64,000 bases of DNA, from assembly GCA_000004985.1 (NCBI GenBank), contig GG738885.1, one strand, 5' to 3'. The notes below the pieces were generated by a model. The model did not search any database. It was not told the DNA's origin and worked only from the letters and a program-made list of their open reading frames with translations. Position 1 is the first letter of the stretch, and every line of letters starts with the position of its first letter. The DNA is from Naegleria gruberi. Taxonomy: Eukaryota. Shown one piece after another: positions 1 through 54,869 of the stretch. Made by a program: the position numbers and the translations under genes.

Positions 1-487
1 TCCCAAACCCAAACCCAAACCCAAACCCAAACGAAACCCAAACCCAAACCCAAACCCAAACCCAAACCCAAACCCAAACCCAAAACCCAAACCCAAACCC
101 AAACCCAAACCCAAACCCAAACCCAAACCCAAACCCAAACCCAAACCCAAACCCAAACCCAAACCCAAACCCAAACCCAAACCCAAACCCAAACCCAAAC
201 CCAAACCCAAACCCAAACCCAAACCCAAACCCAAACCCAAACCCAAACCCAAACCCAAACCCAAAACCCAAACCCAAACCCAAACCCAAACCCAAACCCA
301 ACCCAAACCCAAACCCAAACCCAAACCCAAACCCAAACCCAAACCCAAACCCAAACCCAAACCCAAACCCAAACCCAAACCCAAACCCAAACCCAAACCC
401 AAACCCAAACCCAAACCTAAAAACCCAAACCTAAAAACCCAAACCTAAAAACCCAAACCTAAAAACCCAAACCTAAAAACCTAAAAA
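1..487. repeat. Terminal telomeric repeat array (CCCAAA)n on the + strand, i.e. G-strand (TTTGGG)n running toward the left end. It becomes degenerate (CCCAAACCTAAAAA units) at the inner edge, ~420-487.
   Basis: Directly visible perfect hexamer CCCAAA repeated ~70 times from position 1, with occasional CCCAAAA/CCCAACC variants. The C-rich strand reads 5'->3' at the left edge, which is the correct polarity for a chromosome end. Confidence 0.85.
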
Positions 488-9800: not shown

Positions 9801-12800
9801 AAATATATTCCAATTCCTTCTTATCTCCAGAATAACTGTTCGAACCACTAAATATTATATCTTCATAATAACTAAATAATTTCTTTGAGGATGTAACTTG
9901 GGCAACTGGTGGCTTGACTGTTTGTGAAATGATAAAGTAAATTCTAATGTAAATTTCAATAATGGTGGTAGTAATCTTTGAGAATGCATATTTGTTAACT
10001 CTAATATTACTTGATGCTGTTAAACTAAAATCATAATCGAATTGAATCTTAAAATTACCATTTGCCTTATCAGTCCAGAAACATTTTGGCTCTGTACCAA
10101 GCAATTGCAAATCATCAGCGTGAATCAATTTGGAGCATGGAACTGTATTTGCCGTGTATGAAGGTGGAGCAAATAATTTGAGGGTAACTCCATCAAATAG
10201 TTCATTAATTTGAGCGTAAATTTCATTAATATAGGTAGAGTTGAATGATCCAAAGTATGTTGCACAATCACTTCCAAAGTAGCCATTCATACAATCATTA
10301 CAAGAAATTCCATTCCAGTAGCCATTATCTCTATCTTGATAGCAAGAGCATTTACCAGTAATATCACAATTACCATGACCATTACAAGTTGTTTGACCAT
10401 TACAATATATATCACAATTTGGCCCATAGTAATTAGTCTTACACTTTTCACAAATAAATCCATCAAAATTACCTGTACAAACACAAGTATTGTTGCTTCC
10501 ACAAGATCCACCATTCAAACAAGTTGAGACGGTACAAGATCTCTCAGTACATGTTGGACCAGTGTAGGCAGGATGACATGTATTACAATCAGATCCATAA
10601 TAATGACCATTTACATCATCATTAACACATGAACAAGTATTGACATCTACACATTGACCATGTCCTGAACAAACATTAGAGCTACTCTTTGAAATAGAAT
10701 TACAATCAAATTGATCACACTTTTCACCATAGTATCCTGAATTACATATGCATCCTGCTACGCCACTTGTAGAATTGATAAAACATTTACCATGATTTGA
10801 ACAAACTCTAAAATCAGTACTTGAGTAATAATCTTCAACGCCATTATAAATACCTCTACAGAGTAAGTTTTCACAAGAATCGCCTGTAATCTTGACTCCA
10901 GAAATTGACAAGCAGGAACACTTATCAATATCTAAACAAGTACCTCTTCCTGAACAAACCTTTGCATCTGTAGAAGAAATGCCATAACAAGTTTTATCTT
11001 GACAGGCTTGACCTCCGTATCCGAACTGACATGTGCATTTTCCATCACTGGAACATTTACCCTTTCCACTGCAAACAGTTGGATCATCTTGTCTCTTTCC
11101 ATTGCAACTTGTAATATTGCATTTATATCCAAAGAATCCATTTGAGCATTTACATAAATCATTTCCAATACATTCACCATTTCCTGAACAAACTACCTTA
11201 GTTTCCAAACTGGAAATACCAAAACAGTCGAAACTCAAAGTGGTTGTAATTTCTTGCACTGTGGTGATATTTCTAATGACAAGCAAATTATCAATAGCGA
11301 GCTCAGTAAATTGGCAATTACATTTCACAGTAGAAGTTTGCTCATCATAACTTGCAGTACATTGCTTACCATTCAACGACATATCAGATTCTACACCAAC
11401 ACAAGAATATGTGTAAGTAATATTGGTTTGTGGTGGTAATAATGGTAGTTCTTCTACTGACATTTCAACGGTAACATTCTTTGAACTCAATTCATCCAAA
11501 ATTTGACTTGTAACGGTTGTCACATTTTCAACAATGGAGAAGCTTGTACTCACAGAGGACACAACTTCAACAGTGGTGGTAGTGGTAAGTGAGGTTTTAA
11601 TATTTTGAACAATTGTTGTTACAGAGCTGGAAATTGTGGAATCGACAAGCATTGCAGTATTTTCCTCTATTGTCACAGAATAGGTCATTGATGTGAAGTG
11701 ATTATCTTTAGACATAGATTCAATAGCTGGAATGCTGATATTTACAGAAACATCATTTCCAGAAGTGGAAATTGTAGAGTTTGAAAAGTCTGTCAAGTAA
11801 ACCTTGTCAACTACGACAGTTAAGGTTGATGTCTGTAAAATAACAGGATCTGCACTCACAGGTTGTTCAATTACAATGGAGGTAGCAAGATTTTTTGTAA
11901 GAGATGAAACCTTCTCCAAGCTATTGAACTGGGTATTAGTGTTTGTAATATTTTCAATGTTTGTGTAGAGAGTTTCAATAACAGTCAGGAAAGTTTTAGT
12001 CGTTTCTGTTGTTATTTCTACTTGACTCTTTGTAGCTTGTTCAATTGTATTATCCAAAATGGAAATTGATTTATCAATCACGACTGGGTCAAGATTTACT
12101 TCATTCTTTACGATTGATTGAGCAGCATAGACAACCAATGATGTAGTAGTTGCTGTGATAGTTTCAGATATTGTTTCTGTTACAGTTTCCAAAGTATTTA
12201 AAAGATTAGTTTGAATATTTGTAACTAAAGTTGAGCGCTTAGCAGCTTCAGGTAAAGTTTGCAACATTTGATTGATTGAAACTATGGTATTAACAGTTTG
12301 TGAAATACCTTGACTAGAATCACCATCTCTATTGAAATTAGAAATAATTTCACTTGTTTGATTTCTGACTTGTTGAATAACATCAGTCATTGAAGTGGCT
12401 TCAACAGTAGCAACAGTAACATTAGTGTACATCATCCTAGATTCTCCTGTCTTTGTATCAGTTAATTCAATAAACAAGGTCATGGTTTCATTTCTTTGAG
12501 TAGTCAATTGAGAATCTGTAGAAACCAATGCAGGAATTCTCATCACATTGTCTTCATTGAGTGGAACTGGAATTTTAGTATTTGTTTCCTTATCAATATA
12601 ACCTTGTGTAATTTCAATACTGTTTTGTTCGTTTTGACAATTTTGACATGTGAGTGTGAAATCAGTTTGCATGGAAACACCATTCGAAGGTGAAACAAAA
12701 CATGGACATTTTTGTGGTTGAGTTGCCTTTGCGAAATTTGTTGAACTTTCAGTTGACGCAATTTCAATTACTTCTGGAGAGCCATCAATCAAGTTGGATT

Positions 12801-15800
12801 CATTCTTTTGGATATACGAAACTTTCAATTGAATGGAGTGGTCAACTAATTCTTCTAAACCTGCTGCATTAATGATAATTGCACTTTGCTCATTCTTATT
12901 CACAACTTGAATGCTGCTGGACGCTGAGGTCACGGTAGTGGTTGTGGTAATTTGAGAAGTTGTGGTCGATTGCAATGTTGAGGTTTCACTTTGTGAAATT
13001 CCAGTTTCGTCAACTTTCCATTCAGTTTTTACAGAAATGGTAGTATCTGTCAAATCTTGTGAAGATTTTTGAACTTCAATTGAAATCTTATCATTACTAT
13101 TGACAACTTTTGTTGCTACTGGCGAAATTCCAATAATACTAAGAATTGGAGGAGGATGAACAATATTCAAAGTAATGGAACATGAAGCCTTTCTTTCTCC
13201 TTTTGTAATTGTTAAAGTCAACTTTGGTTTTGTAAGAGTTAGAATTGAAAAGTCAGTATAGTTTGCATTTACTACAGCAGCACGATTCTTAGAGTAGAGA
13301 GCTAACTTATCTGTAATACCATCACCACAATAACCATCTGTTTCAGAATTAATACACGACCATTGCCATAACTCAGTTTCGTCTGTGTTGTTTTCTGGAT
13401 CTTGATAATTGACTTGAATTGTTGATGAATAATTAGTCACACTCTTCAATGAAAGATAAAGTGAGAGTTCAGGTTGTTCAGTGTTAATTATCACATAATC
13501 ACTTGATGATAAACTTGAATTTTGTGCAGCTGTAATAGTAATCTTGAAAACGAATTTCCACTTTCCCTTTATGAAACTGTCAATGATCAAATTATTGTAA
13601 GCGTCCTTCTTGAAAGAAAGGGATGGACCTTCAAGTTGTTCCCACTCAATGCTCACAGATGAACCACTTATATAATCTGGAATGGTTGTTGTCTTTTTCA
13701 CAAGTACCAACTTTTCAGTTGACTTGTAAGTTGTTTCCTTATTTCCTGATACAGACACTGAAGGAACGGCATATCCCTGAATTTGGAAACTGAAACTTTC
13801 TTTTGAACTCACTTCATTAGTAACCTTACTTCTCACAATTAATAAAACCTTATAAACTCCAGGAAGTAAATAACCCTTATCAATCTTAATAGATGGTAAC
13901 TTGTTTGCTTGAACCTTGTTTTTAACAATTGCTGGAATGTTATTTCCTTGAATATCCCAAGTATAATCCAATTCCTTCTTATCTCCAGAATAACTGTTAG
14001 TACCACTAAATGCCAAATCCTCGGTTGTGGAATAAACTTTCTTTGTGGATTTAACTTTGGCTACTGGAGGTATTACAGTCTTGGAAAGAATAAAGAAAAC
14101 GGATATGTAATATTCATTGAGAATGGTTGTAGTCGTTGAGAAAATGTAACTATTCAATCTGAAACTGTTACTGCCAGATGACAAATCAAAATCATTATCG
14201 AAATCAAATTGAATGGTAAAGATACCATTTGCCTTATCGGTCCAGAAACATTTAGGTTCTGATCCAAATAATGAAAAATCATCTGGATGAATAAGTTTCG
14301 AACATGTGACCGTATTTGCAGTATAAGTAGACGGAGCAATCAACTTGAATGTAATTGCGTCATAGTAATCAGAAACCTGAGCATAAATATTATCAACTAG
14401 AGTTGAATTGTAAGAACCAACATAGGTCAAACACTTAGTTCCATAATAATTATTTCTACAATAGGCGCATGAAGTTCCATTCCAGTAACCATTGGAGGTA
14501 TCTACATAACATGAACACTTGCCAGCACTTGTGCAACTCCCATGACTATTACAAAATGTTTTAGGATTACAATAAATATCACAATTAGATCCGTATTGAT
14601 AGGTTTTACAACTTTCACAAAGTAGTCCAGTAAAGTTTCCAACACAATTACAAATATTATTGACACATGTTCCTCCATGTAAACAGGTGGAATTGTTGCA
14701 ATATCTTGTCAAACAATTTGCACCAGAGTATGCAGGATGACATGAGCTACATGTTGATCCAGAATAGAAACCTTTAGTGCTATTACTATAACATGAACAA
14801 CTGTTAATTCCAGTGCAAGAACCATGTCCAGAACAAACATTTGTATCATTGTTGGCTAATCCATAACAATTGAATGCTCCACAGTATGTTCCGTAATATC
14901 CTGAATTACATTGACATTTACCTTCAAGAGTTGTTGCATTAATTACACACTTTCCGTGATTTGAACAAGCTCTATAATCAGTGGTAGCGAAATAATCTTC
15001 AACACCATTGTAAACTCCTCTGCAAAGTAAGTTTTCACATGTACTTCCTGTAATCTTGACATTGGTGTTATTAAATACATAACATTGACATTTGTCAACA
15101 TCAACACAAACACCTCTTCCTGAGCAAACATTTGGATCCAAAGATGTTTTACCAAAGCATGTTTTAACTTGACAATCTTTACCTCCATATCCATAAGAGC
15201 ATTGACAATGACCATCTTCAAAACATTTTCCTTTTCCACTGCAAACAGTTGGATTATCTTGTCTCTTTCCATTGCAACTTGTAACATTACATTTAGATCC
15301 AAAGAATCCATTTGAGCATTTACATAAATCATTTCCAATACATTCACCTTTTCCTGAACAAACAACTGTATCCTCAAGGCTTGAAATACCAAAACATGTG
15401 TATTCTTCCATTTCTACTACTTCTTCAATTATGGTTGTTACATTTCTAACAACTACAAGATTTGAAATTTGGAGTTGATTAAAAATACAATTACACTTGA
15501 CACTTGAAGTTGATTCATCATATTCTGCAGTACAATTGTGTGATTCGAGTGACATATTTCCTGTGTTTACACCCATACATGAATAAGAAGAAGAGAATTC
15601 AATGAAATCTCCAGAGTCAACCAACATTTCAATTGACACATTTTGAGAACTCATCAATTGGTTTGCTACTGAACTTTCTGATGTTTCCATGATTGAGAAT
15701 GATGTAATGACAGGAGAAGCAATTTGTAATGTGGTGGTGTTTGTAATATTTGTAAGAATTTGTTGCAAAATAGTTGAAGAATATTCCTCAACAACCATAG

Positions 15801-18800
15801 AGTAAGTTATTTCAACATATTCCGTTTCCATAGTTATAAATGATGGAAGGCTGATATTCACAAGAATAGTTTTGTTTACACTTTCCATTTCTGTGGTTAT
15901 GGATGAAATGACAGAGTCTGAGAGATCGGTAAAATAAATCTTGTCAACTTGGATAGATAAAGAAGAAGTTTGTAAAACAATTGGATCAGCACTCACTGTT
16001 TGCTCCTTAACAATTGAATAAGCTAGGTTTTCAGTCACATTAACCAATTGATCATAAATATTGAGTTGTTCAAGGGTTGATGTAATATTTTCAACACTAC
16101 TTTGCAAATTCTCAACAATTGACATTACAGTTTGACTTGTTTCAGTTGAAATTTGAAGATTACTCTTCACTGCTTGATCAACTACTTCATTCAAAATAGA
16201 AATTGATTTATCAGTAACTACTGGAACAATAATTTCATCGCTCTTAATCACAGAATAAACAGCATAAACAACCATTGATGAAGTTGACTCAATTGAGGTT
16301 TCCACTCTTGTAGTTTCCACAGCACTTGCAAGTGTACTAAGAAGTTGAGTTTGAATTTTAGTAATTGTTTCAGAATCTTGATGTTGAACTTGTGGTAAAC
16401 TTTGCAACAATTGACTTGTTGAAACGATTGTATTAACAGTTTGTGAAATACTTTCAATTGGATTACCATCTTGAATGATAGCTGAAATGATTTCGGTTGT
16501 TTGATTGGAGACCTGTTGCCAAATCTCTTCGGTTGTGTTTACCACAACTGTTGTCACTGTTATATTTGTATACATGGTTCTTGATTCTCCAGATTCTGTA
16601 TCAGTCAATTCAACAAACCATTTAACAGGTGCAGCTTGTGGAGTATTTGAACTAGAGGATACCACAGCAGGGATTTTAACAGTATCCTCCTCTGAGATTG
16701 GTACTTGAATTTTGATTCCAGTTTCACTATCCACATATCCTTGGGTGATTTCGATGGTATTTTGTTCATTTTGACAATTGACACATGAAACTTTGAATTC
16801 TGTTTCCATAGAAACACCATTAGAAGGTGTAATGCTACATGGACATTTTTGTGGTTGAGTTGCCTTTGTAATTGTTGTTGAACTTTCGGTAGAAGCAATT
16901 TCAATTTCTTCTGGAATACCATTAACAATATTAGATTCATTAGTTTGAACATACGAAACTTTCAATGCAATAGTTTTTTCAGTTCCTTCATCAAACTCCC
17001 TGGCATCAATAATAATAGCGCTTTGTGTATTCTTACTAACAACTTGAACATAACTTGAAGTTGATAACATTGTTGTGGTTGTTGAAAAAGAATCTGTTGA
17101 TTCTATTCTTGTAGTTTCACTCTCAGAAACAATGGAAGTGTCAATCTTCCATTCAGTTTTAATAGAAAGTGATGAATCTGATAAATCCTGTTTTGAGTGA
17201 GAGACTTCAATGGAAAACTTCTCATCACTATTGACAACAGATTTAAAGTCTGGAGAAATGTCAATAATATTGAGAATTGGAGGTAAATGAACAATATTCA
17301 AAGTAATGGAACATGAAGCCTTTCTTTCTCCTTTTCTAATGCTTAGAGTAAAAGTTGGTTTCTGTAAAGTTGATAAGGAAAAGTCAGATTTGTCAACTAT
17401 GAAGAGAGTTGAATGGTTCTTGGAATGGAAAGACATTTTGTCTACAACACCATCTCCACAATAACCATCTGTTTCAGAATTAATACACGACCATTGCCAT
17501 AATTCAGTTTCGTCTGTGTTGTTTTCTGGATCTTGATAATTGACTTGAATTGTTGATGAATAATTAGTCACACTCTTCAATGAAAGATAAAGTGAGAGTT
17601 CAGGTTGTTCAGTGTTAATTATCACATAATCACTTGATGATAAACTTGAATTTTTTTCTGGAGTAATTGAAATTTTGAAAACATATTTAAAAGCTCCCTT
17701 AGTGAAACTTTCAATAATCAAATTATTGTAAATATCCTTCTTAAAATCAACATTCGGACCTTCAATTTGTTGCCATTCAATATTCATAGTTTCATTCTTC
17801 AAATAATCTGGAATTGTAGTTGTCTTTTTGATATGAACCGGCTTTTCAGTTGACTTTTGCCTAATTTTCTTACTTCCGTAAATACTAACTGAAGGAACTT
17901 GATATTCTAGAATTTGTAATGTGAAAATATTAATCAAACTCACTTCACTAGTTACTGTACTTCTCACAACTAGTGTCAACTTATAAATTCCCAATTTTAG
18001 CAAACCCTTATCAATCTTAATGGTTGCTTGCTTGTTGGATTTTATGAAATTTTCAACAGTAGAATTGATAGAGTTTCCCTCAATGCTCCAAGTATAATCC
18101 AGTTCTTTCCTATCTCCAGAGAAGGAGTCTGATCCACTAAATATCATATCTTCTGTTTCACTATAAATTCTTTTTGATGACTTCACATCAGCAACTGGAC
18201 TTTTTACAGTATTTGGAGGCATTAAATAAATAATAGTGTCATCTACGATGGTTCTTGTAGAAAAAGCTCCAAGTTTGTTCAATCTTCTTGTAAGTGTAGT
18301 AAATAGATTTCTGTTCACTCTAAAATGGTTTCCTATGACTGACGAAGAGTTTAGAGTAAAATCATAATCGAATTGAATCTTGAAATCACCATTTTCCTTA
18401 TCAATCCAGAAACATTTAGGTTCTGTGCCGAATAATGGTTGATCATCGATGTAAATGAGTTTTGAACATGGAACAGTGTTTGGTAAATAGGAAGGTGGAG
18501 CAAATAGCTTAAATATCACACCATCAAAGAAATCAGTAACTTGAGAATAAATTTCATTGACATAGGTAGAGTTGAATGATTCAAAATGGGCAAAACAATC
18601 GCTTCCAAAGTAACCATTTTGGCATGAGCTGCATGAGCTACCATTCCAGTAACCATTCTTGGTATCTGAGAAACAAATACATTGGCCATCGGATCCACAT
18701 TGGCCATGTCCATTACATGTTGATTGACTATTACAATAGACATTACATTGTGATCCATAACTATTGGATTTACAAGTTTCACAAATCAATCCAGTAAAGT

Positions 18801-21800
18801 TTCCAATACAATCACAACTATTATCAGTTCCACAAGACCCACCATTCATACAAGTTGAACCAGTACATGTTTTAACATTACAATTTGCACCAGTATATGC
18901 AGGATGGCAAGTGTTACAATCAGATCCAGAATAGAAACCATTAGTACTATCACTATAACATGAGCAGGTGTTAATTCCAACACAATCACCATGTCCTGAG
19001 CAAACATGTGAGTTATTCTTGGCAATTGAGTTGCAATTAAACATTTCACACTTGTCTCCGTAATATCCCGCAGCACAGGAACATCCTCCTGTTGAACAGT
19101 TACCGTGCTTTGAGCAAACTCTAAAATCATTGCTTGAATAAAAATCTTCAACGCCATTGTAAACTCCTTTGCAAAGTAAGTTTTCACATTCATCACCAGT
19201 AATCTTTACACTGATGCCATTTGATGAAAAACATTGACACGTGTCAATATCAACACAAACACCTCTTCCTGAGCAAACATTTGGATCCAAAGATGTTTTA
19301 CCAAAGCATGTTTTAACTTGACAATCTTGACCTCCATATCCATAAGAGCATTGACAATGTCCATCTTCAAAACATTTTCCCTTTCCACTGCAAACAGTTG
19401 GATTATCTTGTCTCTTTCCATTGCAACTTGTAACATTACATTTAGATCCAAAGAATCCATTTGAGCATTTACATAAATCATTTCCAATACATTCACCTTT
19501 TCCTGAACAAACTACTGTATCCTCAAGGCTTGAAATTCCAAAGCATTCATAAGTTTGGACTATAACAGCAGTATTCAATGAACAGTCTGCTCCAAAGTAT
19601 CCAGCTGTACAATTACAATTATTTAATGAAGGACAATCACCATGTCCACTACAGACCTGTGATGAATTATATTGAACTCCAGCACATGTGTGGAATTCAC
19701 ATTCAATTCCAAAATATCCGGCATTACATGTACATTTATCCACTTGAGAGCAATTACCACGATTTAAACAAGCGCCATTTAGACCTTTTCCAAAACAAAT
19801 TGGTGATGAACAATCTGCACCTGCCCAATTTTGATTACATGTACAATTGTTTGGAGAGTTACATTGACCATGTGAGGAACAAACTAGTGATGAGTTTGAA
19901 AGAATATTGAAACATTTAGGGAGAGCACACCAATCTCCTCCATACATAGCGTTGCATTGGCAAATACCACCCACACAAGTACCATTAGATGAACATACTG
20001 ATGGGTCATCCTTTGAAATGCCATTACATTTGAGTAGTTGACATTGGTTTCCTTCATAATTAGGAGAACAGGAACATGTATCAACACCAGAACATACCCC
20101 CCAGAACAAACTGATGTTTCGTTTGACAAAATTCCAAAACAGTTTGGATATTGACATTGTGAGCCTCCAAAGTTTGAGTTACATTGACATGAATCCAATC
20201 CAACACATGAACCATGGGAATTGCAAACAGATGAATTGTTTTGTAAAGTTCCATAACAAGTTGTAATTGAACAATTAGATCCATAATAATTTGAAGAGCA
20301 AGTACAAGAGTTGTAATCAACACATGAACCATGCTCAGAACAAACTGATGTTTCGTTTGACAAAATTCCAAAACAATATGGATATTGACATTGTGAGCCT
20401 CCATAGTTTGAGTTACATTGACAGGAGTCCAATCCAACACATGAACCATGGGAATTGCAAACAGATGAATAGTTTTGTAAAGTTCCATAACAAGTTGTAA
20501 TTGAACAATTAGATCCATAATAATTTGAAGAGCATGAGCACGAATTATAATCCATACAAGTACCATGTCCTGAACAAACACTAGAATTGGTTTTTGCTAC
20601 ATAGTAACAATCAAAAATTTCACAGTTAAATCCATAGTAATTTAAGGAGCATGAACAAGTATTAAATGTTGAACATGCACCATGTCCTGAACAAACCTGA
20701 CTTGAATTAGAATAGACTCCATTACATGTTGTTACTGAGCAATTGGCTCCATAATAATTCGATGAGCAGCTACAGGAATTATATGCTGTGCAAGTGCCCT
20801 GATTAGAACAACCAGTAGTAACAGAGTTTGAATATCCATTACATGTCCAAGAAGAACAATTTGAATTAGAATAACCAGTTGCACAGGTGCATGTGTTAAT
20901 GGCTGTGCAGGTACCATGGGAATTGCAAACTGAAATGTCATCAGATCTTTTGGAGTAACAATAGGGTAGATTACAATAACTTCCACCATAATTTGCATCA
21001 CACGTCATGTAAATTTTTCTGAGTTCATCACTTTCTGCAATTAACATCAAGTTGTTATCGCTGGCAAAAGTCAAACCTACAAGTGTATTGAACTTGGTAT
21101 TAGCCAGAGTTTCTCCATCATTATATGTTCCAGCACTATTACCAGCATATGACGTTATTGTACCAGTGTTAGCATTGGCAGTTGCAGGTGTGAAAAGTTT
21201 AAGAGCACCACTCTCAGTGTAGTATACATTACCGTTGTCGTTTACATAAAAGTCTTTGATGGTTACAGAAGAGGTCTTAATTAAGTTAGTTTAACTAGTT
21301 CAATAAAACTTACAGTAAAACGTGTTGCGACTGTTGAAGCAGTGAAAACTTTGAGATAAAACGTTGAACCGATTTGTTGAAAGTAATATATCTTTCCATC
21401 TGACGGTCTTATTGTAAAAGAAACTAAAAGAATTAAATGAAAAGAGAATATCAGATAACTTACATAGTGTTGCAATATTTGCTGATGATGATGCACCATC
21501 AGAAGTGGAGGCACCCCCTCCCAAAACAACTACAATCTTTCCAGTTGATGAGCTGATTTTGTAAATATAGTTGTCTGATGCAAAATAGATCTCACCATTG
21601 TAATATTGTAAATTTTTGGCATTCTAGAATAAAATTGGATATTCATTTCAAAGCAATAGAGAAAAAATACTTACAGTAATAGTACAAGCAGTTGGAGTGT
21701 TTCCATTAACACAATCTGATCCAGAAGCTGCGCCAGCTACTATTGTAACTAAACCCGTGCTCTTTGACAGTAATTTGAGAAAAAATCCAGGTGAATAATT

Positions 21801-24752: not shown

Positions 24753-25898
24753 TTAATCATTCTTTTGATACATGACAGCATATTCATTTTGTTTGACAGC
24801 TTCCCCAACAACCTCAGAATCATTTTCCAATGTTTTAGAGGCAAACCGAATTGCAAGACCTTGCTGTCTAACAGCACAAAGTACAACTTCTCTATCATTG
24901 GTCAAATTATAACTGGCATACTGGAGTGAAAGTCCATTTTGATTAACAGCAGTCAGCACAACCTCTCTATCTTCTAGAAATCTAATTCCAGCTCCATAAA
25001 GCGATTTTCCATTCACCTTAACAGCTTCTATCACAAAATCTCTATCGAGTCTTAGCTGTTGAGCAAACGATAATGCTGTACCATAGTTTCTGATTGCCTC
25101 TAACACAATCTCTCTATCATTTTTCAACTCGTTACTAGCCAGGCCCAGATAAGCTCCATTAATTTGTACTATTTTCAGTATAAATTCTCTATTGTTCCTC
25201 AATGATTCAGTGGCATAATGCAATGCTGTTTCATTTCTAGATTTTTCGTGTTGGTTATTGTCAATTTGGCAGGCCATCAACACAAGCTCAGCATCTCCTC
25301 TTAGATTAGTTGATAAATATTCTAGTGCTCTTCCTCCCGTTTTTCGAATAGACAATTCTGCTATTTCTCTATCATTTCTCAATTCTTCACTAGCAAACTT
25401 CAATGCCTCACTGTTGCCATAAGTGAGAGCACATTTTAATATTTCTTTATCATTTTTCAATTCATCCGAAATGTTTGCATATGTATCAGGATAATATTCC
25501 ATTAATTTCTTTACAAAATATCTATCATTCCACAATCCTAACAAATCGGCATAAACTGATGGATTTTTAGCTTCTTCCAATATAGAATCTAATATAAATC
25601 TCTTATCTTTCACAATGTCTGGCATTGAAACTGCAAAGAAATAATCAAAATTAACTCCATGCTCATTTTCAAATATTTCCATAACTTGTTTTCCTTCAGA
25701 GATAATTTCTTCATCATCATATTCCTCATCAAAATCTTCATCTTCCGAATCATCATCCTCCTGAGCCAAATATAATTTTACAAGATTTTCCAAAGTTTCC
25801 CAAATGTAGAGTTGTTTATCTTTAATGTCTCTCATCTTGTTCATGAGAAAATGTGAAAGTTGGTGATTGTACTGATCTAGAACAATGATTGTTGCCAT
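24753..25898 (-). CDS. DUF4116-repeat protein with an acidic N-terminal region
   Basis: Intronless 381-aa ORF with tandem ~30-aa repeats (..L.NDREVVL.AV.QNG.AL.YAS..L..D.E.V..AV..N) typical of DUF4116. Confidence 0.6.
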   Translation of the reverse strand: MATIIVLDQYNHQLSHFLMNKMRDIKDKQLYIWETLENLVKLYLAQEDDDSEDEDFDEEYDDEEIISEGKQVMEIFENEHGVNFDYFFAVSMPDIVKDKRFILDSILEEAKNPSVYADLLGLWNDRYFVKKLMEYYPDTYANISDELKNDKEILKCALTYGNSEALKFASEELRNDREIAELSIRKTGGRALEYLSTNLRGDAELVLMACQIDNNQHEKSRNETALHYATESLRNNREFILKIVQINGAYLGLASNELKNDREIVLEAIRNYGTALSFAQQLRLDRDFVIEAVKVNGKSLYGAGIRFLEDREVVLTAVNQNGLSLQYASYNLTNDREVVLCAVRQQGLAIRFASKTLENDSEVVGEAVKQNEYAVMYQKND

Positions 25899-25948
25899 TT
25901 TTTTTAATTTTCGTATTTAATTTTCGAATGTTGTACAATCTTGAAGAA

Positions 25949-27123
25949 TCAATGTTGGGTGATTTTAAAAACTTCAATTTCAGCAACCTGAAATGTGCTA
26001 CTTCCAGCCAAATAACTTTTAGCTTCCTCACTTCCATATTGTAATCCAATTGGTAGCTCAAAAGTATTTCCAAAATCAGAACTTGACAATACAGTTGAAA
26101 TGTCAAGGTCAACATCTCCAAATCTAGGTAAATAATTCTTACAAAGACAAATGGCATATTGTTTCTGATTTTGCTTAAAATTGAACTTTTCTAAATGATA
26201 TTTTCCACTAAAATCTTTTACAATTTTAAAAATAAATGCAGATTCATCTGAAACATATTCACCTAATAAGGAATGTGGGGATTTCCAGGATCGAGAGGTA
26301 AAGGCACCAAATATTTGATTGTGTTTTGCTGATTTGATAATTGTCAATGTTGGTCCTTGTAAGTCACATTTCGAATGAAAATGTTTCGAATGGAATCCAT
26401 CTCTAGTTCCTCTATACAATAATTGAGGAATTGCAATGCTGCAAGTATGGGAACATAATTCACTTGACACTGAACAATCACATTCGTTAATAATTATGGA
26501 AGAAACTAATCCAAAATAAACATTTGTTTTGATATTAGTGAGCGAGCATTTGTCGAAAATAATTCCACTCAAATCTTGTGATTGCAGATCAATATTATCA
26601 AATTGAATATTTGCAATATGTTTGTTTGAAAGTCCATTAAAATCAAATAAACATCTGTCAAATTTCAATCCGTTAAAATTTGACAAATCTTTCAAATTTC
26701 GTAAATCTGAATTCTTGATTGTGCAATTATTAAATGAATTATTGGTTGAGTGAAGAATAATTTTAAAATCAATTTCCTCAAATATTGATCCATTGAAATC
26801 GCATTCAATGAATTTACAATTTTGTAAAACTTTTTCCTTTGTAAAGTGAATTTGAATTTTGCATTTTGTAAATTTTGCATTTTCAAATTTAGATTTCTTT
26901 GTAATTGTGTTTGTGAAATTAACATTTTCAAAATTGGAATTTGAGAAACAAGCACTTAAAAAGTTTGAATCTGAAAAGTTGCAACCATTTGAATTACAAT
27001 TAATGAAATATGACTTGGAAAAATCTAATTTTGACAGGTTACTGTTTTGTAATTGCACTTTCTCAAATGTTGTGGAAATAAACTTGGCTTCTTCAAATTT
27101 ACATTGTTCCAAACATGTTTCCA
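25949..27123 (-). CDS. C-terminal half of a pentapeptide-repeat + TLDc-domain protein. It is probably the same gene as 27124..28457, separated by a 1-nt frameshift.
   Basis: ~230 aa of pentapeptide repeats (NFS.SNF....F..) followed by a TLDc domain (LLYRGTRDGF..HFHSKCD..GPTLTIIKS....IFGAFTS..W). Its ATG shares one base with the upstream stop (TAATG), and the upstream ORF ends inside the same pentapeptide-repeat array. Confidence 0.6.
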
Positions 27124-28457
27124 TTAAAAATGCATTAGAAAGTCAGTATTCTTCAAATTGGCGTTTGACAAGTTGCATTCACTCAATTCACAATTTTGGA
27201 AATTAGCACCTGCCAAATCACAATTACTGAAATCACATCCTCTCATCGTGCTTCCTTTAAAATTACACCCTCTTATATTCATTCCACTAAAATTACAACA
27301 ACTCAATTTTGAATTTTCCAAATTTGTTTTCTGAAGAAGGAAATTCCTCATATTCACTCCATTCAAATTCAAACTCAAATCACCTCCAGCAAACACATTT
27401 GAAAGTCTAATCAAGTCAAGTTGTGAATTGAGTAATTGTTTTTCCAAATTTGTCAATTGAAATAATTGACAGGCATCAACGAGTCCATGTTTCATTTCTT
27501 TCAAATCAATAATTCCAAATCTTAACCAATCCAAAATGTGTTTGAATACGACTGGATCACAATTAATGAAATAAACATCATCTTTGAATGATGTACAAGG
27601 TGTTTGATATAGCGGATGTTGACCTGTCAACATTTTCTTGAATAAATTGTCAGGTTCTCTCTCGTTATGAAGTAAATCACCTAAGGAGACTGTCAAGATT
27701 GTTCCACCAACATTTAAAGGAATTGGTTTGTTGCTGGATTCGAATATTTCTCTTTGCAATTTTTCCTTTTCAAACTTTTCAATTAGTTTTTGTAAATCTT
27801 GATCTTTTGATTCAAATTCTTGAACTAGTTCAGCTCTTTTAACTTGAAATTCACTATTTGTCTGATTGATCATCTGTTCATGTTCTGTCTTGAATTTATT
27901 CATCAAATCTTGATATTTCCTTTCCAATCCAATTTTCCTTTTTTGAAATTCTTCTTCCAAATTAACTTTCAATTCCTCAACTTGTTTATAAGCATCCAAC
28001 AGTGGACAATACCTTTCCTGATGATCTTTCAATTGTCCTCTCTGCACTCCACCCTTACACATCGAACATTGCACTTTCAATTCATCCAACTTGTTCAAAA
28101 TATATTTGGGAACTGCCAATGAATTCTGTTTCAAATCATTTCCTCGACAAAGTGGACATTTATCAACTTTATCGATAATGCACTTGGAACAGAACATTTG
28201 ACCACATTCAGAATGCATGATTGGATCAATGAATGGATATTTACAGATGGAACATGTTAAATCTTGATCAATATTGTGTAAATCGAGATAAAGTCATGGT
28301 TTGGTTGATTAGTTTCGGAATATTCAATTCTTGAAAATTCATCGTAATTGATTTGTTTTTCAGGGTTGGTAGATGAAATGGTTGGATTGTTGTAGTTCGA
28401 ATCTTCATAAAACGTGCGAGAAAGTTTATCATTTGACAGTTGTGGTTGTTCAGACAT
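27124..28457 (-). CDS. RING/zinc-finger + coiled-coil + BTB/POZ (T1/KCTD-type) + pentapeptide repeats: the N-terminal part of a KCTD9-like/TLDc fusion protein
   Basis: ORF 27124..28218 contains the Cys/His cluster CSICKYPF..HSECGQMFCSKC..CPLCRG, a long coiled coil, the BTB T1 signature PIPLNVGGTILTVSLGDLL..DPVVFKHILDWLRFG, then pentapeptide repeats up to the stop. An upstream in-phase-shifted ORF 28257..28457 (MSEQPQLS..) probably supplies the true N-terminus via another 1-nt frameshift near 28230-28260. Confidence 0.55.
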
Positions 28458-32901: not shown

Positions 32902-34407
32902 TTAAATGATTATTCTCTTCTTAATGGCTTCCTTCTTTGCCAACTTTTCGAATTGAATTGTTTGTTTGAAACGATGATGAGTGTCAAGCATCAAAATGCA
33001 AATTTCAGATTCGACATCATCAAATAATGAATCAATCAAATGTTCGTTTTGAGCAGTGGCAAATAAATCCAAGTGATTCTTGACCTTATCGGTCATGTAT
33101 TTTGGCAGGTTGACAGATTTTTCACCTCTGACATCTAAATAATCTGTGTAGATTTCGAACGAAATTTCGTACTTCTTCTTTTCCACATCAAGTAAATCCT
33201 TTTCACTAAATTTCTTCTTTTTCTTCTTGTGATCTGTTGAATCAGAACCTGCATCACTACTTATTTCAGATGAAAGCTCGAACAAATATTCTTGAATGTC
33301 AAAACTCCTTTCACACAAAATTTTGTAATCTGAAATCTTTTCCAAAATTTGGAAGTTCTCAATGCTCAACTCAATCTGACAATGTTTTCTAAATAATTCT
33401 CTAGTAATTGGATGTTCCATTGTATCCATTAATAGAAATGCTCTCACTTGATTGAGTTTTCTATTAGTAGATTCATCCTTCTTGACTGATGCCACAAATG
33501 AAGTGACAATGACAGGAACTACCAATATAAGTGAAATCAAAATGACTACTAGTGAAATAGTAACCATAATGACAGTTACACTCTGACTATCCTTCTTGGT
33601 ATTATCCACATAGGAGACCATGATTTGAAATTCATCCTTATATCCATCAAGATAGGTTTGATATTGTTGTGAATTTAACAAAATCATGGCAGTTGAATAG
33701 TTTCCATTCATTGCTAGTCTGATAGCTCTTTGTTCGAGAAAGATGGCTTTGGAGGTTTCTAATTCTGCATTAGGTTTTCCCTTTAGTGCCACATTTCTAA
33801 TAGATTCTGGAACGAGTGCTTTAAAGTAAGCAGTATTGTTACTGAACTTTGACAGATAGGTATTGTACTTGGTTTGATATAATTGAGTAAGTGTTAAATT
33901 GTAATTGGAAAAGACTGAAGATCTGGCAGCTGCAATAGTTGTTTCTCTATAATAGTTAGTGTCAGAATCCAAATTATCCCACACATTGTTATATTCGTAT
34001 TGTAACACGAACGCAGCAATGATTAGACCAGCCAAAATGAGGAATGAAGTTAAATTAATAACTAGAGAACTCAAACTGAAAATTCTCAATGTTGAAAGCT
34101 GTAAAGTTCCTAAGCAAGTATTACAAGTGAGAATGACATCTGAATCTTTGCTCTTAACTGAAGAAGAACGTGGTGTTCTTATTGATGTAGTAATGGACTT
34201 GGCAGGTCCTTCTTCAGCAATATGTGAATTGGTAGTGGATGAATCATATTTTACACTTGCAAACTTTTTAGGAGGTTGCATTGGACTTGAAATTGGTGGA
34301 CTAGTTGCCAAATCGCTCGGAGAAGAACACTCTGCAGGAGAATGAAGGTTGACTTGACTGGTGCTCAACTCTTTGAGTTCTTGCAGTGAGCCACTGTTGG
34401 TGGTCAT
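32902..34407 (-). CDS. Receptor-like RGS protein: N-terminal tail, TM1, ~200-aa extracellular sensor-like domain, TM2, then a cytoplasmic RGS domain
   Basis: Two strong hydrophobic helices (LVINLTSFLILAGLIIAAFVL and VTVIMVTISLVVILISLILVVPVIV). The RGS signatures are LLMDTMEHPITRELFRKHCQIELSIENFQILEKISDYK and EIYTDYLDVRGEKSVNL..ICILMLDTHHRFKQT. Paralog of 53181..54869. Confidence 0.65.
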   Translation of the reverse strand: MTTNSGSLQELKELSTSQVNLHSPAECSSPSDLATSPPISSPMQPPKKFASVKYDSSTTNSHIAEEGPAKSITTSIRTPRSSSVKSKDSDVILTCNTCLGTLQLSTLRIFSLSSLVINLTSFLILAGLIIAAFVLQYEYNNVWDNLDSDTNYYRETTIAAARSSVFSNYNLTLTQLYQTKYNTYLSKFSNNTAYFKALVPESIRNVALKGKPNAELETSKAIFLEQRAIRLAMNGNYSTAMILLNSQQYQTYLDGYKDEFQIMVSYVDNTKKDSQSVTVIMVTISLVVILISLILVVPVIVTSFVASVKKDESTNRKLNQVRAFLLMDTMEHPITRELFRKHCQIELSIENFQILEKISDYKILCERSFDIQEYLFELSSEISSDAGSDSTDHKKKKKKFSEKDLLDVEKKKYEISFEIYTDYLDVRGEKSVNLPKYMTDKVKNHLDLFATAQNEHLIDSLFDDVESEICILMLDTHHRFKQTIQFEKLAKKEAIKKRIII

Positions 34408-49791: not shown

Positions 49792-51666
49792 ATGGTTTCA
49801 ACTAGCAAGAAGAAGAACTCTTCTTCAAACACTTCCCTACCAAATAGTCCAGCCATTTCCATCACTTCAGTTGAAAGCAATGACATGAACAATTCACCAT
49901 CTTCTCTTCCTTCCTCTCCTTCGAATTCTTCCAATTTTTTCTCTTCTTCACCGAACAGCAAATCACCTGGTAGAAGACTTCACTTTTTTCCCGCCAAATC
50001 TCCTAAAAAAAAATCTACAACTTCCATCTCTACTGATTCACTTCATGCTGCAAGTAATACTAATCATGGTTGTGATGCGATAGGTGATTATACCTTTTCG
50101 TATGAGGCTGTGCTAGATGATGAGGAGACGAGACAGTGTTTATTGGAATATATGAGGACGATTAGATGTGAGGAAAGTTTGTTGTTTTTAGATCAGGTGA
50201 ATTCATTTCATAGAAAAAGATCAACTGCGAATAGGTGGAGTATGATACAGTCAATATTTGAACAATTCTTTTGTGAGCACTCGAAATATGAATTGAATTT
50301 ACCACAGAGAGTTAAGGATATGATGATTCACACCTATTCGGACGTTGTTGAGGAAATTGCTCATAGGAAGAGAATGAATCTTGATGAGGATACTAATAGT
50401 AGTAGTAATTCCAGATCATCATTGGAACAAGCAAATCAGCCACCACCACAACAACAAGTAAAACAAAACAAGAACAAGAATAATAATGAAAAGAGTAATA
50501 ATAATAATAGAAATTCTAAGGATGATTTGGATGTTTCACTAGGTTCTTTGGATTACATAGATTTGAGTGATTGTGAGGAGGCCCTAAAGAAGGCAGAGAG
50601 TTACATCCTCATCAACTTGAAAGAATATGTCTTTCCAAAGTTTGTCGGCTCTGATCACTTTCAAGGATTCATCTCAACAAAGAGCAAGACCTTTATTAAT
50701 ACTATTGGTACGGTGAAGGCCTTATCTCATTCGTGCTTTGTTGAATCATTGATGGACATGAGGAGGTGTGAAATTAATGTAGATCAAGTGAGAATGATCA
50801 AGAAACATGTCTTTGATACCAGATATTGGGATTGTATCTATCAGAAGGAAACAAGCTATGGTTTTATTTCTTCAAAAAAGTACATTCTTGGTGAGGACGA
50901 TCACGCTAAGGGTGTTTACTTTGCCAAGTGTGAAGTGATCTTTCCTTACTCTGCTGACCAAATTATGAATATCATGACCAATACAAAGAATAGAATTGAA
51001 CACGACAAGAATTTGGAAGATATCAAGAGAATTGGTTATAGAAACAAGTCTGGAACTACAAATTTTAATCCAAATCTGGTACATTCCAGTGATGAAGATG
51101 AGGATACACTCTCTTCCACTAGCTCTGCAATGTCTGACCTTCACGATACTGCATCTTCCAGATCTCATACATCAAATCATTCACATCAACAAACAAATCA
51201 TCATTCGCCAATATCAGGAAAAACCAAATTGGCCACCACATTAACACATGAACGATACAAGCTTGGTTGGCCAATCAAGTCTAGATATTATTTGCTCGCT
51301 CAGAGTATGGTACATGATACAACAGATAACATGTACATTATTGCAAAAAAGTCTTGCAGAATTCCAAATTATGATCCAGATGAAGGAACAAATATTGAAG
51401 CCATCAATATTGGTTGTTGGATGTTTCAACCTTTACTAGATGAAAATCAAAAGCCATGTTGTAAATACATTCAATTTGTTGGAACAGATTTGAGAGGAAA
51501 CATTCCAACATTTATCATTGAAAAGATTGTTAGAAAGAGAACTAGTAACTTTTACAAATCCACCATGAAAATGATCAAAGCTTGCGAAGAAGAGTCCACA
51601 ACAAGACCATTCGATTCAAGTGGTTATTTCGATACTCTAGATGAGAATGGCAGCATGGCTCTCTAA
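49792..51666 (+). CDS. RGS-domain + START (StAR-related lipid-transfer) domain protein
   Basis: An N-terminal S-rich region precedes an RGS-like segment (FSYEAVLDDEETRQCLLEYMRTIRCEESLLFLDQVNSF..MIQSIFEQFF). The C-terminal ~220 aa carry a START pattern (..GVYFAKCEVIFPYSADQIMNIMTNTKNRIEHD..RYKLGWPIKSRYYLLAQSMVHDTTDNMYIIAKKS..KYIQFVGTDLRGNIPTFIIEKIV). Confidence 0.55.
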   Translation: MVSTSKKKNSSSNTSLPNSPAISITSVESNDMNNSPSSLPSSPSNSSNFFSSSPNSKSPGRRLHFFPAKSPKKKSTTSISTDSLHAASNTNHGCDAIGDYTFSYEAVLDDEETRQCLLEYMRTIRCEESLLFLDQVNSFHRKRSTANRWSMIQSIFEQFFCEHSKYELNLPQRVKDMMIHTYSDVVEEIAHRKRMNLDEDTNSSSNSRSSLEQANQPPPQQQVKQNKNKNNNEKSNNNNRNSKDDLDVSLGSLDYIDLSDCEEALKKAESYILINLKEYVFPKFVGSDHFQGFISTKSKTFINTIGTVKALSHSCFVESLMDMRRCEINVDQVRMIKKHVFDTRYWDCIYQKETSYGFISSKKYILGEDDHAKGVYFAKCEVIFPYSADQIMNIMTNTKNRIEHDKNLEDIKRIGYRNKSGTTNFNPNLVHSSDEDEDTLSSTSSAMSDLHDTASSRSHTSNHSHQQTNHHSPISGKTKLATTLTHERYKLGWPIKSRYYLLAQSMVHDTTDNMYIIAKKSCRIPNYDPDEGTNIEAINIGCWMFQPLLDENQKPCCKYIQFVGTDLRGNIPTFIIEKIVRKRTSNFYKSTMKMIKACEEESTTRPFDSSGYFDTLDENGSMAL

Positions 51667-53180: not shown

Positions 53181-54869
53181 TTATTTATTGGAAGGAACTT
53201 TGAGAGAATCAAGATTAAGACCTGATTTACTGTCTTGAGCCTTCTTACTCTTTCTCACAGTTGGAAGTTTAATCTTGAGTGATTCCTTCTTTGTCTTTTT
53301 CTGGAATTCAACTGTTTGCTTGAATCGGTGATGGGTGTCAAGCATCAAAATACAAACTTCTCCTTCCACTGGATCGAAAATCATATCACTAAGATGTTCA
53401 TTCTCTCCTGATGCAAACAAATCTAATTGAGTTTTGACCTTGTCAGCTGCATGTTTGTTGATGTTGACAGATTTGTCACCATTGACATCTAGGAAATCAG
53501 TAAAGATTTCAAAAGCAACTTCGTACTTTTTCTTTTCAATTTCAATTAAATCTCTTTCAGTATAACCCTTTTTCTTCTTCTTTTTACCTTGGCTGTCACT
53601 ACTCATTGAAGTTGATGTTGAACCAGTGTCAGAAATGGCATCTGAAAAGGCGACAGTTAGCTCTTGATCATCATACAAGAATACTTGAATTTCAAATGAT
53701 TTCTCACATAAAATCTTGTAATCTGTAATCTTGTCAAGTAACAAGTAATTTTCCAAGCTCATTTCTTGTTTACAATATTCTTTGAATAATTTTCTAAGTT
53801 TGTTATCTCTCATGGTGTCCATAAGCATGTAGGCGTTTGCTTTCTTCAATCTCTTATTGTTGGCATTGTCAGAATTCATGGAAAAGGCAAGTGACATGAT
53901 GACTACTGGAATAACAATGACAATTGACACACAGACAATAATTAATTGCAAAGTGGTCATGGTAGTTGAGAAATCTCTATAGCTAACCTCCAAAGCCTTA
54001 AAATAATCAACAGAAGGCTTGAATTCCACTTCATACCAAGGTAAATAATCTTGATAGGTGTCAGAGCCAATTAAATTCATGGCAGCTGTAAAGTTTCCAG
54101 CTTTGACCATACTAATAGCTTGTCTCTCAACACTCATAGCCTTCACTGTCTTCATATCATAAATTGTTATATTATGTTTGACAGAATATCTCAATTCATT
54201 TGGCATGTATGCCAACATGTTATTAATTTCAGTATTGAACTTGGTTGAGTAATTTCCATAGAGATTGGCATAGCCAAGAGCAACTGTCTTGTTGTTATTG
54301 GCATAGACTGCTGAACGACATGTGTAAACCATCATGTCTCTATAATAGGAAGTGTCAAGATCCATATTTGAAATTGATGTCAATAAATTATTGCTGCCAA
54401 CGTAGCCAACAATAATGACAGTGAGTAATGCGATGAAACCAAGTAGATTAGCAGTTAAACTAGTCAAATTGACAAGCTTGAAGGATGACAGCTTGAGGGT
54501 AGTTCCACAACACATTCTGATGGCAAATAAAGAATTTGACGAGTGACTTGTCCTAGATCCAGTTCCAGATTTCTTATGGGAAGCAACAGAACTCTTCTTT
54601 TTAGACTCTTTAATGATGGTAGAAGCTGCTGGCTCTGTTGCAAAATTTGCTTTTGGTTTTGGACTGGTTGGAGTTGTTGGCGTTTGACATTTTTCCTTGA
54701 CAAGATGATCCATAGAATGACTCGAGCTAGAAAAGGATGAAGAAGCATCACCTGCTGTAAAATTTGTTGGAGTCAAGTAATAATCACAATTATGAACGTC
54801 TATTCCATTCAATTCTTCGATTGCTTTTTGCATGGAACTGTCAGCTGACACTGAAGTTGATTCTTGCAT
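53181..54869 (-). CDS. Receptor-like RGS protein, paralog 2 (TM1, sensor-like ectodomain, TM2, RGS)
   Basis: Same architecture as 32902..34407: TM helices LLGFIALLTVIIVGYV and LQLIIVCVSIVIVIPVVIMSLAF, and RGS blocks YMLMDTMRDNKLRKLFKEYCKQEMSLENYLLLDKITDYK..EIFTDFLDVNGDKSVNI..VCILMLDTHHRFKQT. Confidence 0.65.
   Translation of the reverse strand: MQESTSVSADSSMQKAIEELNGIDVHNCDYYLTPTNFTAGDASSSFSSSSHSMDHLVKEKCQTPTTPTSPKPKANFATEPAASTIIKESKKKSSVASHKKSGTGSRTSHSSNSLFAIRMCCGTTLKLSSFKLVNLTSLTANLLGFIALLTVIIVGYVGSNNLLTSISNMDLDTSYYRDMMVYTCRSAVYANNNKTVALGYANLYGNYSTKFNTEINNMLAYMPNELRYSVKHNITIYDMKTVKAMSVERQAISMVKAGNFTAAMNLIGSDTYQDYLPWYEVEFKPSVDYFKALEVSYRDFSTTMTTLQLIIVCVSIVIVIPVVIMSLAFSMNSDNANNKRLKKANAYMLMDTMRDNKLRKLFKEYCKQEMSLENYLLLDKITDYKILCEKSFEIQVFLYDDQELTVAFSDAISDTGSTSTSMSSDSQGKKKKKKGYTERDLIEIEKKKYEVAFEIFTDFLDVNGDKSVNINKHAADKVKTQLDLFASGENEHLSDMIFDPVEGEVCILMLDTHHRFKQTVEFQKKTKKESLKIKLPTVRKSKKAQDSKSGLNLDSLKVPSNK

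Follow-up and report, generated by a model that had tools for sequence, protein, structure and literature searches.

A predicted two-transmembrane RGS protein of Naegleria gruberi with an ectodomain of bacterial sensor type

Locus, protein architecture and membrane topology

The window analysed here is a 64,000-nucleotide stretch of the Naegleria gruberi genome (GenBank assembly GCA_000004985.1, contig GG738885.1), and the element in question is a minus-strand gene at positions 32902..34407 that encodes a candidate receptor-like regulator of G-protein signalling (RGS), in which two transmembrane (TM) helices bracket an ectodomain and an RGS domain forms the C-terminal part. The open reading frame (ORF), taken from the ORF list, runs from ATG to stop over 501 aa, and its product (P0001) matches 'predicted protein [Naegleria gruberi]' in NCBI/UniRef at 100% identity over the full length, so that the locus can be regarded as an intact, annotated, single-exon gene. 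An earlier note on this DNA, made from the letters alone, had placed a gene at this position and two TM helices in its product. The gene is real, its ORF being complete and identical to the annotated protein, and the helices are borne out as well, since a 19-residue Kyte-Doolittle scan of P0001 finds exactly two hydrophobic segments, at residues ~107-137 and ~276-307, with peaks of 2.48 and 3.29 and no others. The sole numerical error of that note concerned the ectodomain, which it had estimated at ~200 aa: the inter-helix region measures ~138 aa (residues 138-275).

Structurally, a model of P0001 made with AlphaFold2 (AF2) from an 18-sequence family alignment (mean predicted local distance difference test score, pLDDT, of 74.6) agrees with this layout. 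Residues 1-91 are disordered in the model, helices 106-144 and 261-331 hold both TM segments, the helical domain between them is predicted confidently (pLDDT 85-96), and the C-terminal domain is helical and broken by a disordered loop at residues 383-396. The linker at residues 308-321 is unbroken with TM2 and runs directly into the RGS box in the same model, and no Pfam match to a HAMP domain was found between TM2 and the RGS box of P0001. At the other end of the protein, the N-tail of the two-TM (2TM) RGS family varies in length and sequence, with 16-20% identity between aligned members, and is followed by a juxtamembrane motif with the family consensus TCCGxxELSxLK (TCNTCLGTLQLS in P0001; 18-sequence alignment). 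Residues 93-106, which carry this motif, form a beta-hairpin of low confidence in the AF2 model, and the juxtamembrane cysteines, predicted to lie on the cytosolic side of the membrane, are candidate S-acylation sites. The coordinates of all these parts, and of those of a second gene of the same architecture in the window, are collected in Table 1.

Topologically, charge and glycosylation statistics for 18 aligned family members, with 20-aa flanks taken on each side of each helix, point to one orientation. The flanks carry a mean net charge of +0.9 before TM1, -2.0 after TM1, -2.1 before TM2 and +4.4 after TM2, from which the positive-inside rule gives a cytoplasmic N-terminus, an external loop and a cytoplasmic C-terminus. 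The loop holds 2.46 potential N-glycosylation sequons (N-X-S/T) per 100 aa, versus 1.15 expected from composition, whereas the cytosolic C-terminal part holds 0.72, versus 0.70 expected, and the loop's bacterial homologs, described below, hold 0.4. Each family member carries two to four sequons in the loop; one sequon column is kept by 15/18 members and another by 12/18. Flank charges and these enriched, conserved putative glycosylation sites together support an inter-helix domain lying outside the cytoplasm. A cytoplasmic inter-helix region, the outcome that the earlier note had set against its own proposal, is not supported by the charges or by a sequon enrichment confined to the loop. The inverted arrangement, with the RGS domain outside the cell, was also considered and was rejected on flank charges and sequon distribution.

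Table 1. Coordinates of the two 2TM-RGS genes of the window and of their predicted parts
Feature	Residues	Position	Strand	Basis
Complete single-exon gene, 501 aa plus stop (P0001)		32902..34407	-	ORF list; 100% identity and coverage to NCBI protein
P0001, putative cytosolic N-tail	1-92	34132..34407	-	S/T/P-rich, predicted disordered; AF2 pLDDT <50 for 1-91
P0001, juxtamembrane motif preceding TM1	93-106	34090..34131	-	Alignment consensus; 43-47% identity
P0001, TM1	107-137	33997..34089	-	Kyte-Doolittle 19-aa peak 2.48; within AF2 helix 106-144
P0001, predicted extracytoplasmic all-alpha four-helix-bundle sensor domain	138-275	33583..33996	-	Sequons N170, N190, N236
P0001, TM2	276-307	33487..33582	-	Kyte-Doolittle peak 3.29; within continuous AF2 helix 261-331
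P0001, short basic helical linker SVKKDESTNRKLNQ	308-321	33445..33486	-	AF2 helix 261-331; flank charge +4.4
P0001, predicted cytoplasmic RGS domain	322-490	32938..33444	-	PF00615 at 329-488; Foldseek; invariant columns
P0001, family-specific insertion within RGS domain	383-401	33205..33261	-	AF2 pLDDT <50 for 383-396; alignment columns ~626-665
Paralog 2 (P0008), 562 aa, same architecture		53181..54869	-	40% identity over 454 aa, E 3e-102
Paralog 2, TM1	~130-160 (~132-164 by hydropathy)	54390..54482 for 130-160	-	Kyte-Doolittle
Paralog 2, ectodomain	161-298	53976..54389	-	Ectodomain profile E 5.6e-49
Paralog 2, TM2	~299-330 (~300-334 by hydropathy)	53880..53975 for 299-330	-	Kyte-Doolittle
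Paralog 2, RGS domain	~345-526	53292..53837	-	PF00615 29.6 bits

Ectodomain and bacterial sensor domains

Evolutionarily, the ectodomain is, by profile comparison, a divergent homolog of a periplasmic sensor domain that is widespread in bacteria. A hidden Markov model (HMM) was built from 17 heterolobosean ectodomains and run against 1.84 billion representative proteins. At a cut-off of E<=1e-3 it returned 72 matches, of which ~20 were additional 2TM-RGS proteins, belonging to N. gruberi, N. fowleri, N. lovaniensis and Willaertia magna, and ~50 were non-RGS signalling proteins of bacterial type, with E-values from 6.8e-10 to 1e-3. The Pfam partners in these ~50 proteins were HisKA/HATPase_c (22), PAS (13-15), Response_reg (9) and GGDEF (3), more rarely MCPsignal and STAS (2 each), and EAL, Guanylate_cyc (class III cyclase), SpoIIE/PP2C and HD (1 each), and nearly all of them carry one or two tandem copies of the domain between two hydrophobic helices. 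The order TM1, periplasmic sensor, TM2, output is the classical bacterial design. The likeness to a bacterial-style 2TM sensor that the earlier note had seen in the topology is thus matched by profile homology to bacterial domains likewise placed between two TM helices.

Profile similarity between the heterolobosean ectodomain and the bacterial domain, for which we use the name DEVLTMSARMAA domain after the signature of its first helix, is significant in both directions. Aligned with hhalign, the heterolobosean profile and the profile of the bacterial copies reach a probability of 98.8% (E 1e-16, 126 columns), and a bacterial-only HMM matches the ectodomain in 25/25 heterolobosean proteins at 15-65 bits, with 31.3 bits for P0001 and with some E-values that stay significant when scaled to the full library size (7e-13, 3.6e-10, 6e-7, 3e-5). 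The consensus of the bacterial domain reads DEVLTMSARMAAxTGDxxWExRY...EPxLDxAI...P...TDxANxxLVxMExxAFxLVxxGxxxxAxxxLxSxEYxxQKxxYxxG, or, in short form, DEVLTMSARMAA...W..RY...P...TD.AN..L..ME..AF.L...G....A...L.S.EY. Bacterial DEVLTMSARMAA proteins thus resemble P0001 in sequence, in the position of the domain between two TM helices and in a shared R...Y...P...E..A.....G....A...L.S..Y pattern, and differ from it in that they often have two tandem copies and have bacterial outputs. Naegleria ectodomains keep the SAR arginine, the RY tyrosine, the proline, the ME glutamate and the motif G....A...L.S..Y; the core residues common to P0001 and bacteria are R162, Y177/Y181, P200, E225, A240, S246 and Y249, and Willaertia P0039 retains 'DLLTM' of the helix-1 signature.

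No Pfam-A or NCBIfam model covering the bacterial DEVLTMSARMAA domain was found. A scan of GTDB species-representative genomes with a degenerate pattern, derived from a 9-sequence alignment of the domain, located at least 573 loci, spread over Planctomycetota, Cyanobacteria, Desulfobacterota, Myxococcota, Verrucomicrobiota, Acidobacteriota, Nitrospirota, Pseudomonadota, Bacteroidota and other phyla. It lies, for instance, upstream of a PP2C phosphatase in Calothrix sp. PCC 7103 and upstream of a histidine-kinase ATPase domain in Pseudomonas sp. 2FG. The domain is represented by loci L002-L081 and proteins P0024-P0082, and two tandem copies of it often stand between two TM helices.

Among eukaryotes, the domain was found only in 2TM-RGS proteins and in a EukProt entry (P0026), to which comes a protein of an unassigned metagenome contig (P0040). 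Given a domain that is very widespread in bacteria and has few eukaryotic occurrences, the parsimonious reading of these distributions is that the sensor module was gained from bacteria and then fused to RGS. The EukProt entry ('gene11359-4527_t', 223 aa) consists of TM1, a sensor domain in which the YDEVLTMSARMAAA motif is intact, and TM2; it lacks an output domain and is possibly a contamination or a truncation. P0040 (L001 1109-2413) is a class III adenylate/guanylate cyclase with an N-terminal 2TM-sensor module like the ectodomain family, within which lie four N-X-S/T sequons; its 5-kb metagenome contig has 58-72% GC, and the gene calls further downstream are fragmented. P0040 may come from a eukaryotic gene in which a bacterial-type sensor is joined to a different output.

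The fold predicted for the ectodomain is an up-down four-helix bundle between TM1 and TM2, whose end helices run on into the membrane. Modelled alone, the ectodomain has a pLDDT of 87.6 and a predicted template modelling score (pTM) of 0.79, and in the alignment its length is steady at 144-146 aa in 17/18 members, with essentially no indels. The sensors listed for this model (values in brackets) are the MCP2201 ligand-binding domain (12.1), the histidine-kinase HK9 sensor (11.1), TorS (10.9), LytS (10.0) and Adeh_2942 (9.8), with Tsr, McpN, Tar and NarQ lower down. Pfam scans, run on the full proteins as well as on the isolated ectodomain, gave no significant sensor-domain model, only 4HB_MCP_1 (E 0.025) and TPR_4 fragments, and the 4HB_MCP_1 family (PF12729) fell short of significance throughout, at E 0.025 for a family member and 0.012 for a bacterial homolog, both far under its gathering score, with no match for P0001. 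NCBIfam gave no match to P0001 and, in the bacterial homologs, matches to output domains only, and a PDB sequence-profile search with the ectodomain returned only MamA/TPR, at E 1.4. A TPR reading of the ectodomain, suggested by the TPR-like GNYxxAMxLLxSxxY motif, was rejected because the domain models as a four-helix bundle.

RGS domain, gene family and genomic surroundings

The earlier note had assigned the C-terminal part to the RGS family and named a profile search as its check, and this assignment is supported by profile and confirmed by fold. PF00615 matches residues 329-488 of P0001 with E 7.4e-5 and 23.5 bits, 0.4 bits short of the gathering score of 23.9, and it matches paralog 2 at 29.6 bits, above the gathering score. 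Precomputed PF00615 matches exist for 14/18 proteins from the homolog search, and further members score 25.9-34.8 bits. When the AF2 model of P0001 was compared with the PDB by Foldseek, every one of ranks 1-41 was an RGS or RGS-homology domain (prob 1.00, with a TM-score by target of 0.6-0.79), including RGS17, RGS8, SNX13, RGS1, RGS9, RGS3, RGS16 and RGS4. In sequence searches of the PDB, neither the single RGS region (nothing relevant) nor the full-length profile (nothing) was productive. A profile with the family's insertion removed did reach PDB RGS chains, weakly (E 0.01-0.9), with RGS domains making up 19/23 of the weak matches, and its alignment sets "elSlEN" against "EFSEEN" of RGS10 and "ksVNin" against "SQVNVE".

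Functionally, the residues by which RGS domains touch their partner appear to be in place. In the complex of RGS4 with Gi-alpha1, residues S85/E87/N88, N128 and D163/R167 of RGS4 contact the switch regions of G-alpha. Seven RGS residues are invariant in 18/18 family sequences, namely E346, S348 and N351 (SxEN), N433 (VN) and D475/R479/F480 (DTxxRF). Set against RGS4, whose sequence as used here agrees with the 1agr_E stretch, the SxEN motif corresponds to S85/E87/N88 and VN to N128, and DTHHRF of P0001 matches DSYRRF of RGS4 (D163-F168; D163/R167) by motif. With these G-alpha-contact residues invariant, the RGS domain of P0001 looks competent to act as a GTPase-activating protein (GAP). The family-specific insertion adds 20-40 residues to the RGS box, first a disordered stretch rich in Ser/Asp and then a run of lysines (HKKKKKK in P0001), for which we infer only that it could bind acidic membrane lipids or serve as a phosphorylation-regulated loop.

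In the two paralogs of the window, the N-tails are 16% identical and the ectodomains 30%, against 48% for the N-terminal and 65% for the C-terminal half of the RGS domain. The contrast between conserved RGS and diverged ectodomain that the earlier note described is therefore present, but its reading as receptors evolving new ligand specificities is one of two that fit, weaker constraint on the ectodomain fitting equally well. That note's count of two paralogs likewise stands for the window alone but not for the genome, in which homolog searches find at least six. The corresponding counts are at least six in N. lovaniensis, at least three in N. fowleri and three in Willaertia. The 2TM-RGS family appears to be restricted to Heterolobosea (Naegleria, Willaertia), and, being present in both, is older than the split of these genera. 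It also seems to grow by local duplication. Both window paralogs sit on one 362-kb N. gruberi scaffold, and among the N. lovaniensis members P0005, P0010 and P0019 (C9374_007672, C9374_007673, C9374_007604) two are adjacent and the third is on the same 521-kb contig.

The window itself is a chromosome end of N. gruberi, with ~33% GC, and opens with (CCCAAA)n telomere repeats. Within positions 1-1900, (CCCAAA)n blocks lie at 1-480 and ~990-1370 with N gaps between, and each block precedes a near-identical subtelomeric unit of ~400 bp (~540-940 and ~1440-1840); this reflects either the joining of two chromosome ends during assembly or an interstitial duplication of a telomere. Adjoining the telomere is a 4433-aa ORF (6856-20157, minus strand, possibly on to 21074) with teneurin-type EGF repeats and REJ and PKD domains, whose product, judged from these domains, looks like a polycystin-1-like or adhesion-receptor-like surface protein. 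Positions 24753-28218 hold three adjacent minus-strand genes encoding, respectively, 8 DUF4116 repeats, pentapeptide repeats with TLDc, and BTB_2 with pentapeptide repeats. A third RGS protein of the window (49792-51666, plus strand; 624 aa, PF00615 E 5.5e-11 at residues 103-178) lies ~1.5 kb from paralog 2 and has an architecture unrelated to the 2TM family; its presence is consistent with the very large RGS expansion of N. gruberi.

Proposed receptor function, competing explanations and meaning

Heterotrimeric G-protein signalling is usually described as driven by receptors of the G-protein-coupled class (GPCRs), whereas in plants and several protists self-activating G-alpha is held in check by receptor-like RGS proteins. 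Receptor-like and TM-anchored RGS proteins are thus already known, and the seven-TM (7TM) RGS type is characterised; to our knowledge it is the only receptor-like type that has been studied. Represented by AtRGS1 and by Nf 7TM RGS1-4 of N. fowleri, it resembles P0001 in being an integral membrane protein with a C-terminal cytoplasmic RGS domain, and its presumed role, too, is that of a receptor-GAP for G-alpha subunits that activate themselves. The two differ in their input, which in P0001 is of bacterial type, with two helices bracketing a four-helix-bundle ectodomain instead of a seven-helix GPCR-like bundle, and in the attachment of the RGS box, which in P0001 follows TM2 after ~14 helical residues instead of a flexible linker. 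Seven TM helices N-terminal to the RGS box are not found in P0001, which has two hydrophobic segments by Kyte-Doolittle and two TM helices in the AF2 model. The 7TM-RGS kind is present in the genus Naegleria too (PMC9283941, PMC3386157).

Compared with bacterial 2TM four-helix-bundle sensors (Tar/Tsr, MCP2201, Vc1313, NarX/NarQ, TorS, HK9), P0001 has an RGS output where theirs is HAMP plus kinase/MCP, and the ectodomain of its family is rich in putative N-glycosylation sites. Plexins, which are single-pass proteins with a cytoplasmic GAP, offer a functional analogy only, that of a ligand-controlled TM receptor with direct GAP output: their fold, their GTPase class (Rap versus heterotrimeric G-alpha) and the organisms are unrelated, and no homology is implied. 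A full-text search, outside which the 2011 survey (Anantharaman et al., Gene 475:63) remained, found no description of an RGS protein with a 2TM four-helix-bundle sensor or of its bacterial kinship, so the earlier note's view of a 2TM-sensor-RGS as an uncharacterised architecture stands for the literature searched.

Overall, the best explanation, to which we give a probability of roughly 60%, is that P0001 is a receptor-like RGS protein, a ligand-modulated GTPase-activating receptor for G-alpha; we infer from the sequence that ligand-modulated GAP activity is its most likely function. Confidence is high for the architecture and moderate for the mechanism. Mechanistically, an extracellular ligand would bind the probably dimeric four-helix bundle and displace TM2, as in bacterial 2TM sensors. 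The RGS box would be fixed rigidly to TM2 at the inner membrane surface by the ~14-residue helical linker, and, joined in this way, it would be moved with TM2, so that the shift would alter how the G-alpha-binding face of the RGS domain meets lipid-anchored G-alpha-GTP and would turn GAP activity up or down. The sensor and TM module would have come from bacteria and been joined to a eukaryotic RGS domain prior to the divergence of Naegleria and Willaertia, with a later expansion to at least six N. gruberi copies with fast-evolving ectodomains. The signalling background is favourable: the N. gruberi repertoire comprises 229 RGS proteins, and its G-alpha subunits show lineage-specific expansions (PMC3971589), and N. 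fowleri has some self-activating G-alpha subunits, which exchange nucleotide spontaneously, as well as working 7TM-RGS GAPs (PMC9283941). Where G-alpha activates itself, a regulated GAP step would be the controlling one, which is plausible in Naegleria as with plant 7TM-RGS1. The fullest form of this proposal, in which a heterolobosean ancestor captured a bacterial chemoreceptor-style module and wired it to RGS, yielding a minimal 2TM receptor that acts as a ligand-regulated GAP through a continuous TM2-RGS helix, is one that we hold tentatively and at somewhat less than even odds.

Several observations weigh against a ligand-modulated GAP. The Pfam RGS score of P0001 is marginally below the gathering score, and its RGS box holds the insertion of ~20-40 aa; we know of no precedent for an RGS output under piston or rotation control through a TM helix. 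The bacterial copies used in hhalign and in the bacterial-only HMM had been picked by the Naegleria profile, so that the two reciprocal tests are not fully independent. The helix-1 signature DEVLTMSARMAA is, moreover, largely lost in Naegleria (DTxYYRExMIASxR), where only the Arg is kept within the signature, and ligand binding might have been lost along with it.

This last point leads to the competing explanation that survives best, in our view an unlikely one, that P0001 is a constitutive membrane-anchored GAP whose helices and loop only anchor, oligomerise or sort it, the ectodomain being a degenerate bacterial relic that senses no ligand. Besides a bacterial signature that is mostly gone in Naegleria, the low ectodomain identity (30-34%) could be explained by relaxed constraint, many RGS proteins are merely membrane-targeted, and in most lineages RGS is found in fusion with one or more TM domains (de Mendoza et al., PMC3971589). 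However, the ectodomain is constant in length (144-146 aa, 17/18) and modelled with high AF2 confidence, bacterial core residues and glycosylation sites are kept, and multiple paralogs persist across genera, all of which is more than a plain anchor would need.

Were the RGS domain not a GAP at all, as in GRK, axin and sorting-nexin proteins, P0001 would be an effector or adaptor that uses it as a G-alpha-binding or other scaffold. The borderline Pfam score and the large insertion between two RGS helices would suit such a role, the Foldseek matches include the RGS-homology domains of SNX13 and axin, and some RGS domains have lost GAP activity (PMC3971589). We nevertheless regard it as improbable, given that the residues defining GAP-competent R4-type boxes (SxEN, an Asn that corresponds to RGS4 N128, and D/R in helix 8) are invariant, and that the best Foldseek matches are true GAPs solved with G-alpha (RGS8, RGS1, RGS16, RGS4, RGS9). 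Least probable of all, with little weight in our judgement, is a protein of an internal membrane (endoplasmic reticulum, contractile vacuole or phagosome) whose bundle faces the lumen and reports lumenal conditions to endomembrane G-alpha: sequence alone cannot separate plasma membrane from endomembranes, sequons and charges suit a lumenal loop equally, and a signal peptide or sorting information is absent, but a polybasic stretch with juxtamembrane cysteines is generally more typical of the inner leaflet of the plasma membrane, and the bacterial homologs face the exterior (periplasm).

If P0001 is indeed a ligand-modulated GAP, the logic by which a receptor controls the GAP would have evolved more than once, with the 2TM family as a second, independent solution beside 7TM-RGS. 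It would also be a cross-kingdom chimera, in which a bacterial sensing module and its input mechanism drive a purely eukaryotic pathway, and it would offer a very small test system for the control of RGS by a TM helix, with ectodomains that could be swapped with bacterial homologs or in Tar/EnvZ-type chimeras. The analysis has also brought to light a periplasmic sensor domain, widespread in bacteria, that escapes present Pfam and NCBIfam models. For Naegleria itself, the 2TM-RGS proteins would add a sensory gene family to the genus, including the pathogen N. fowleri, which has orthologs.

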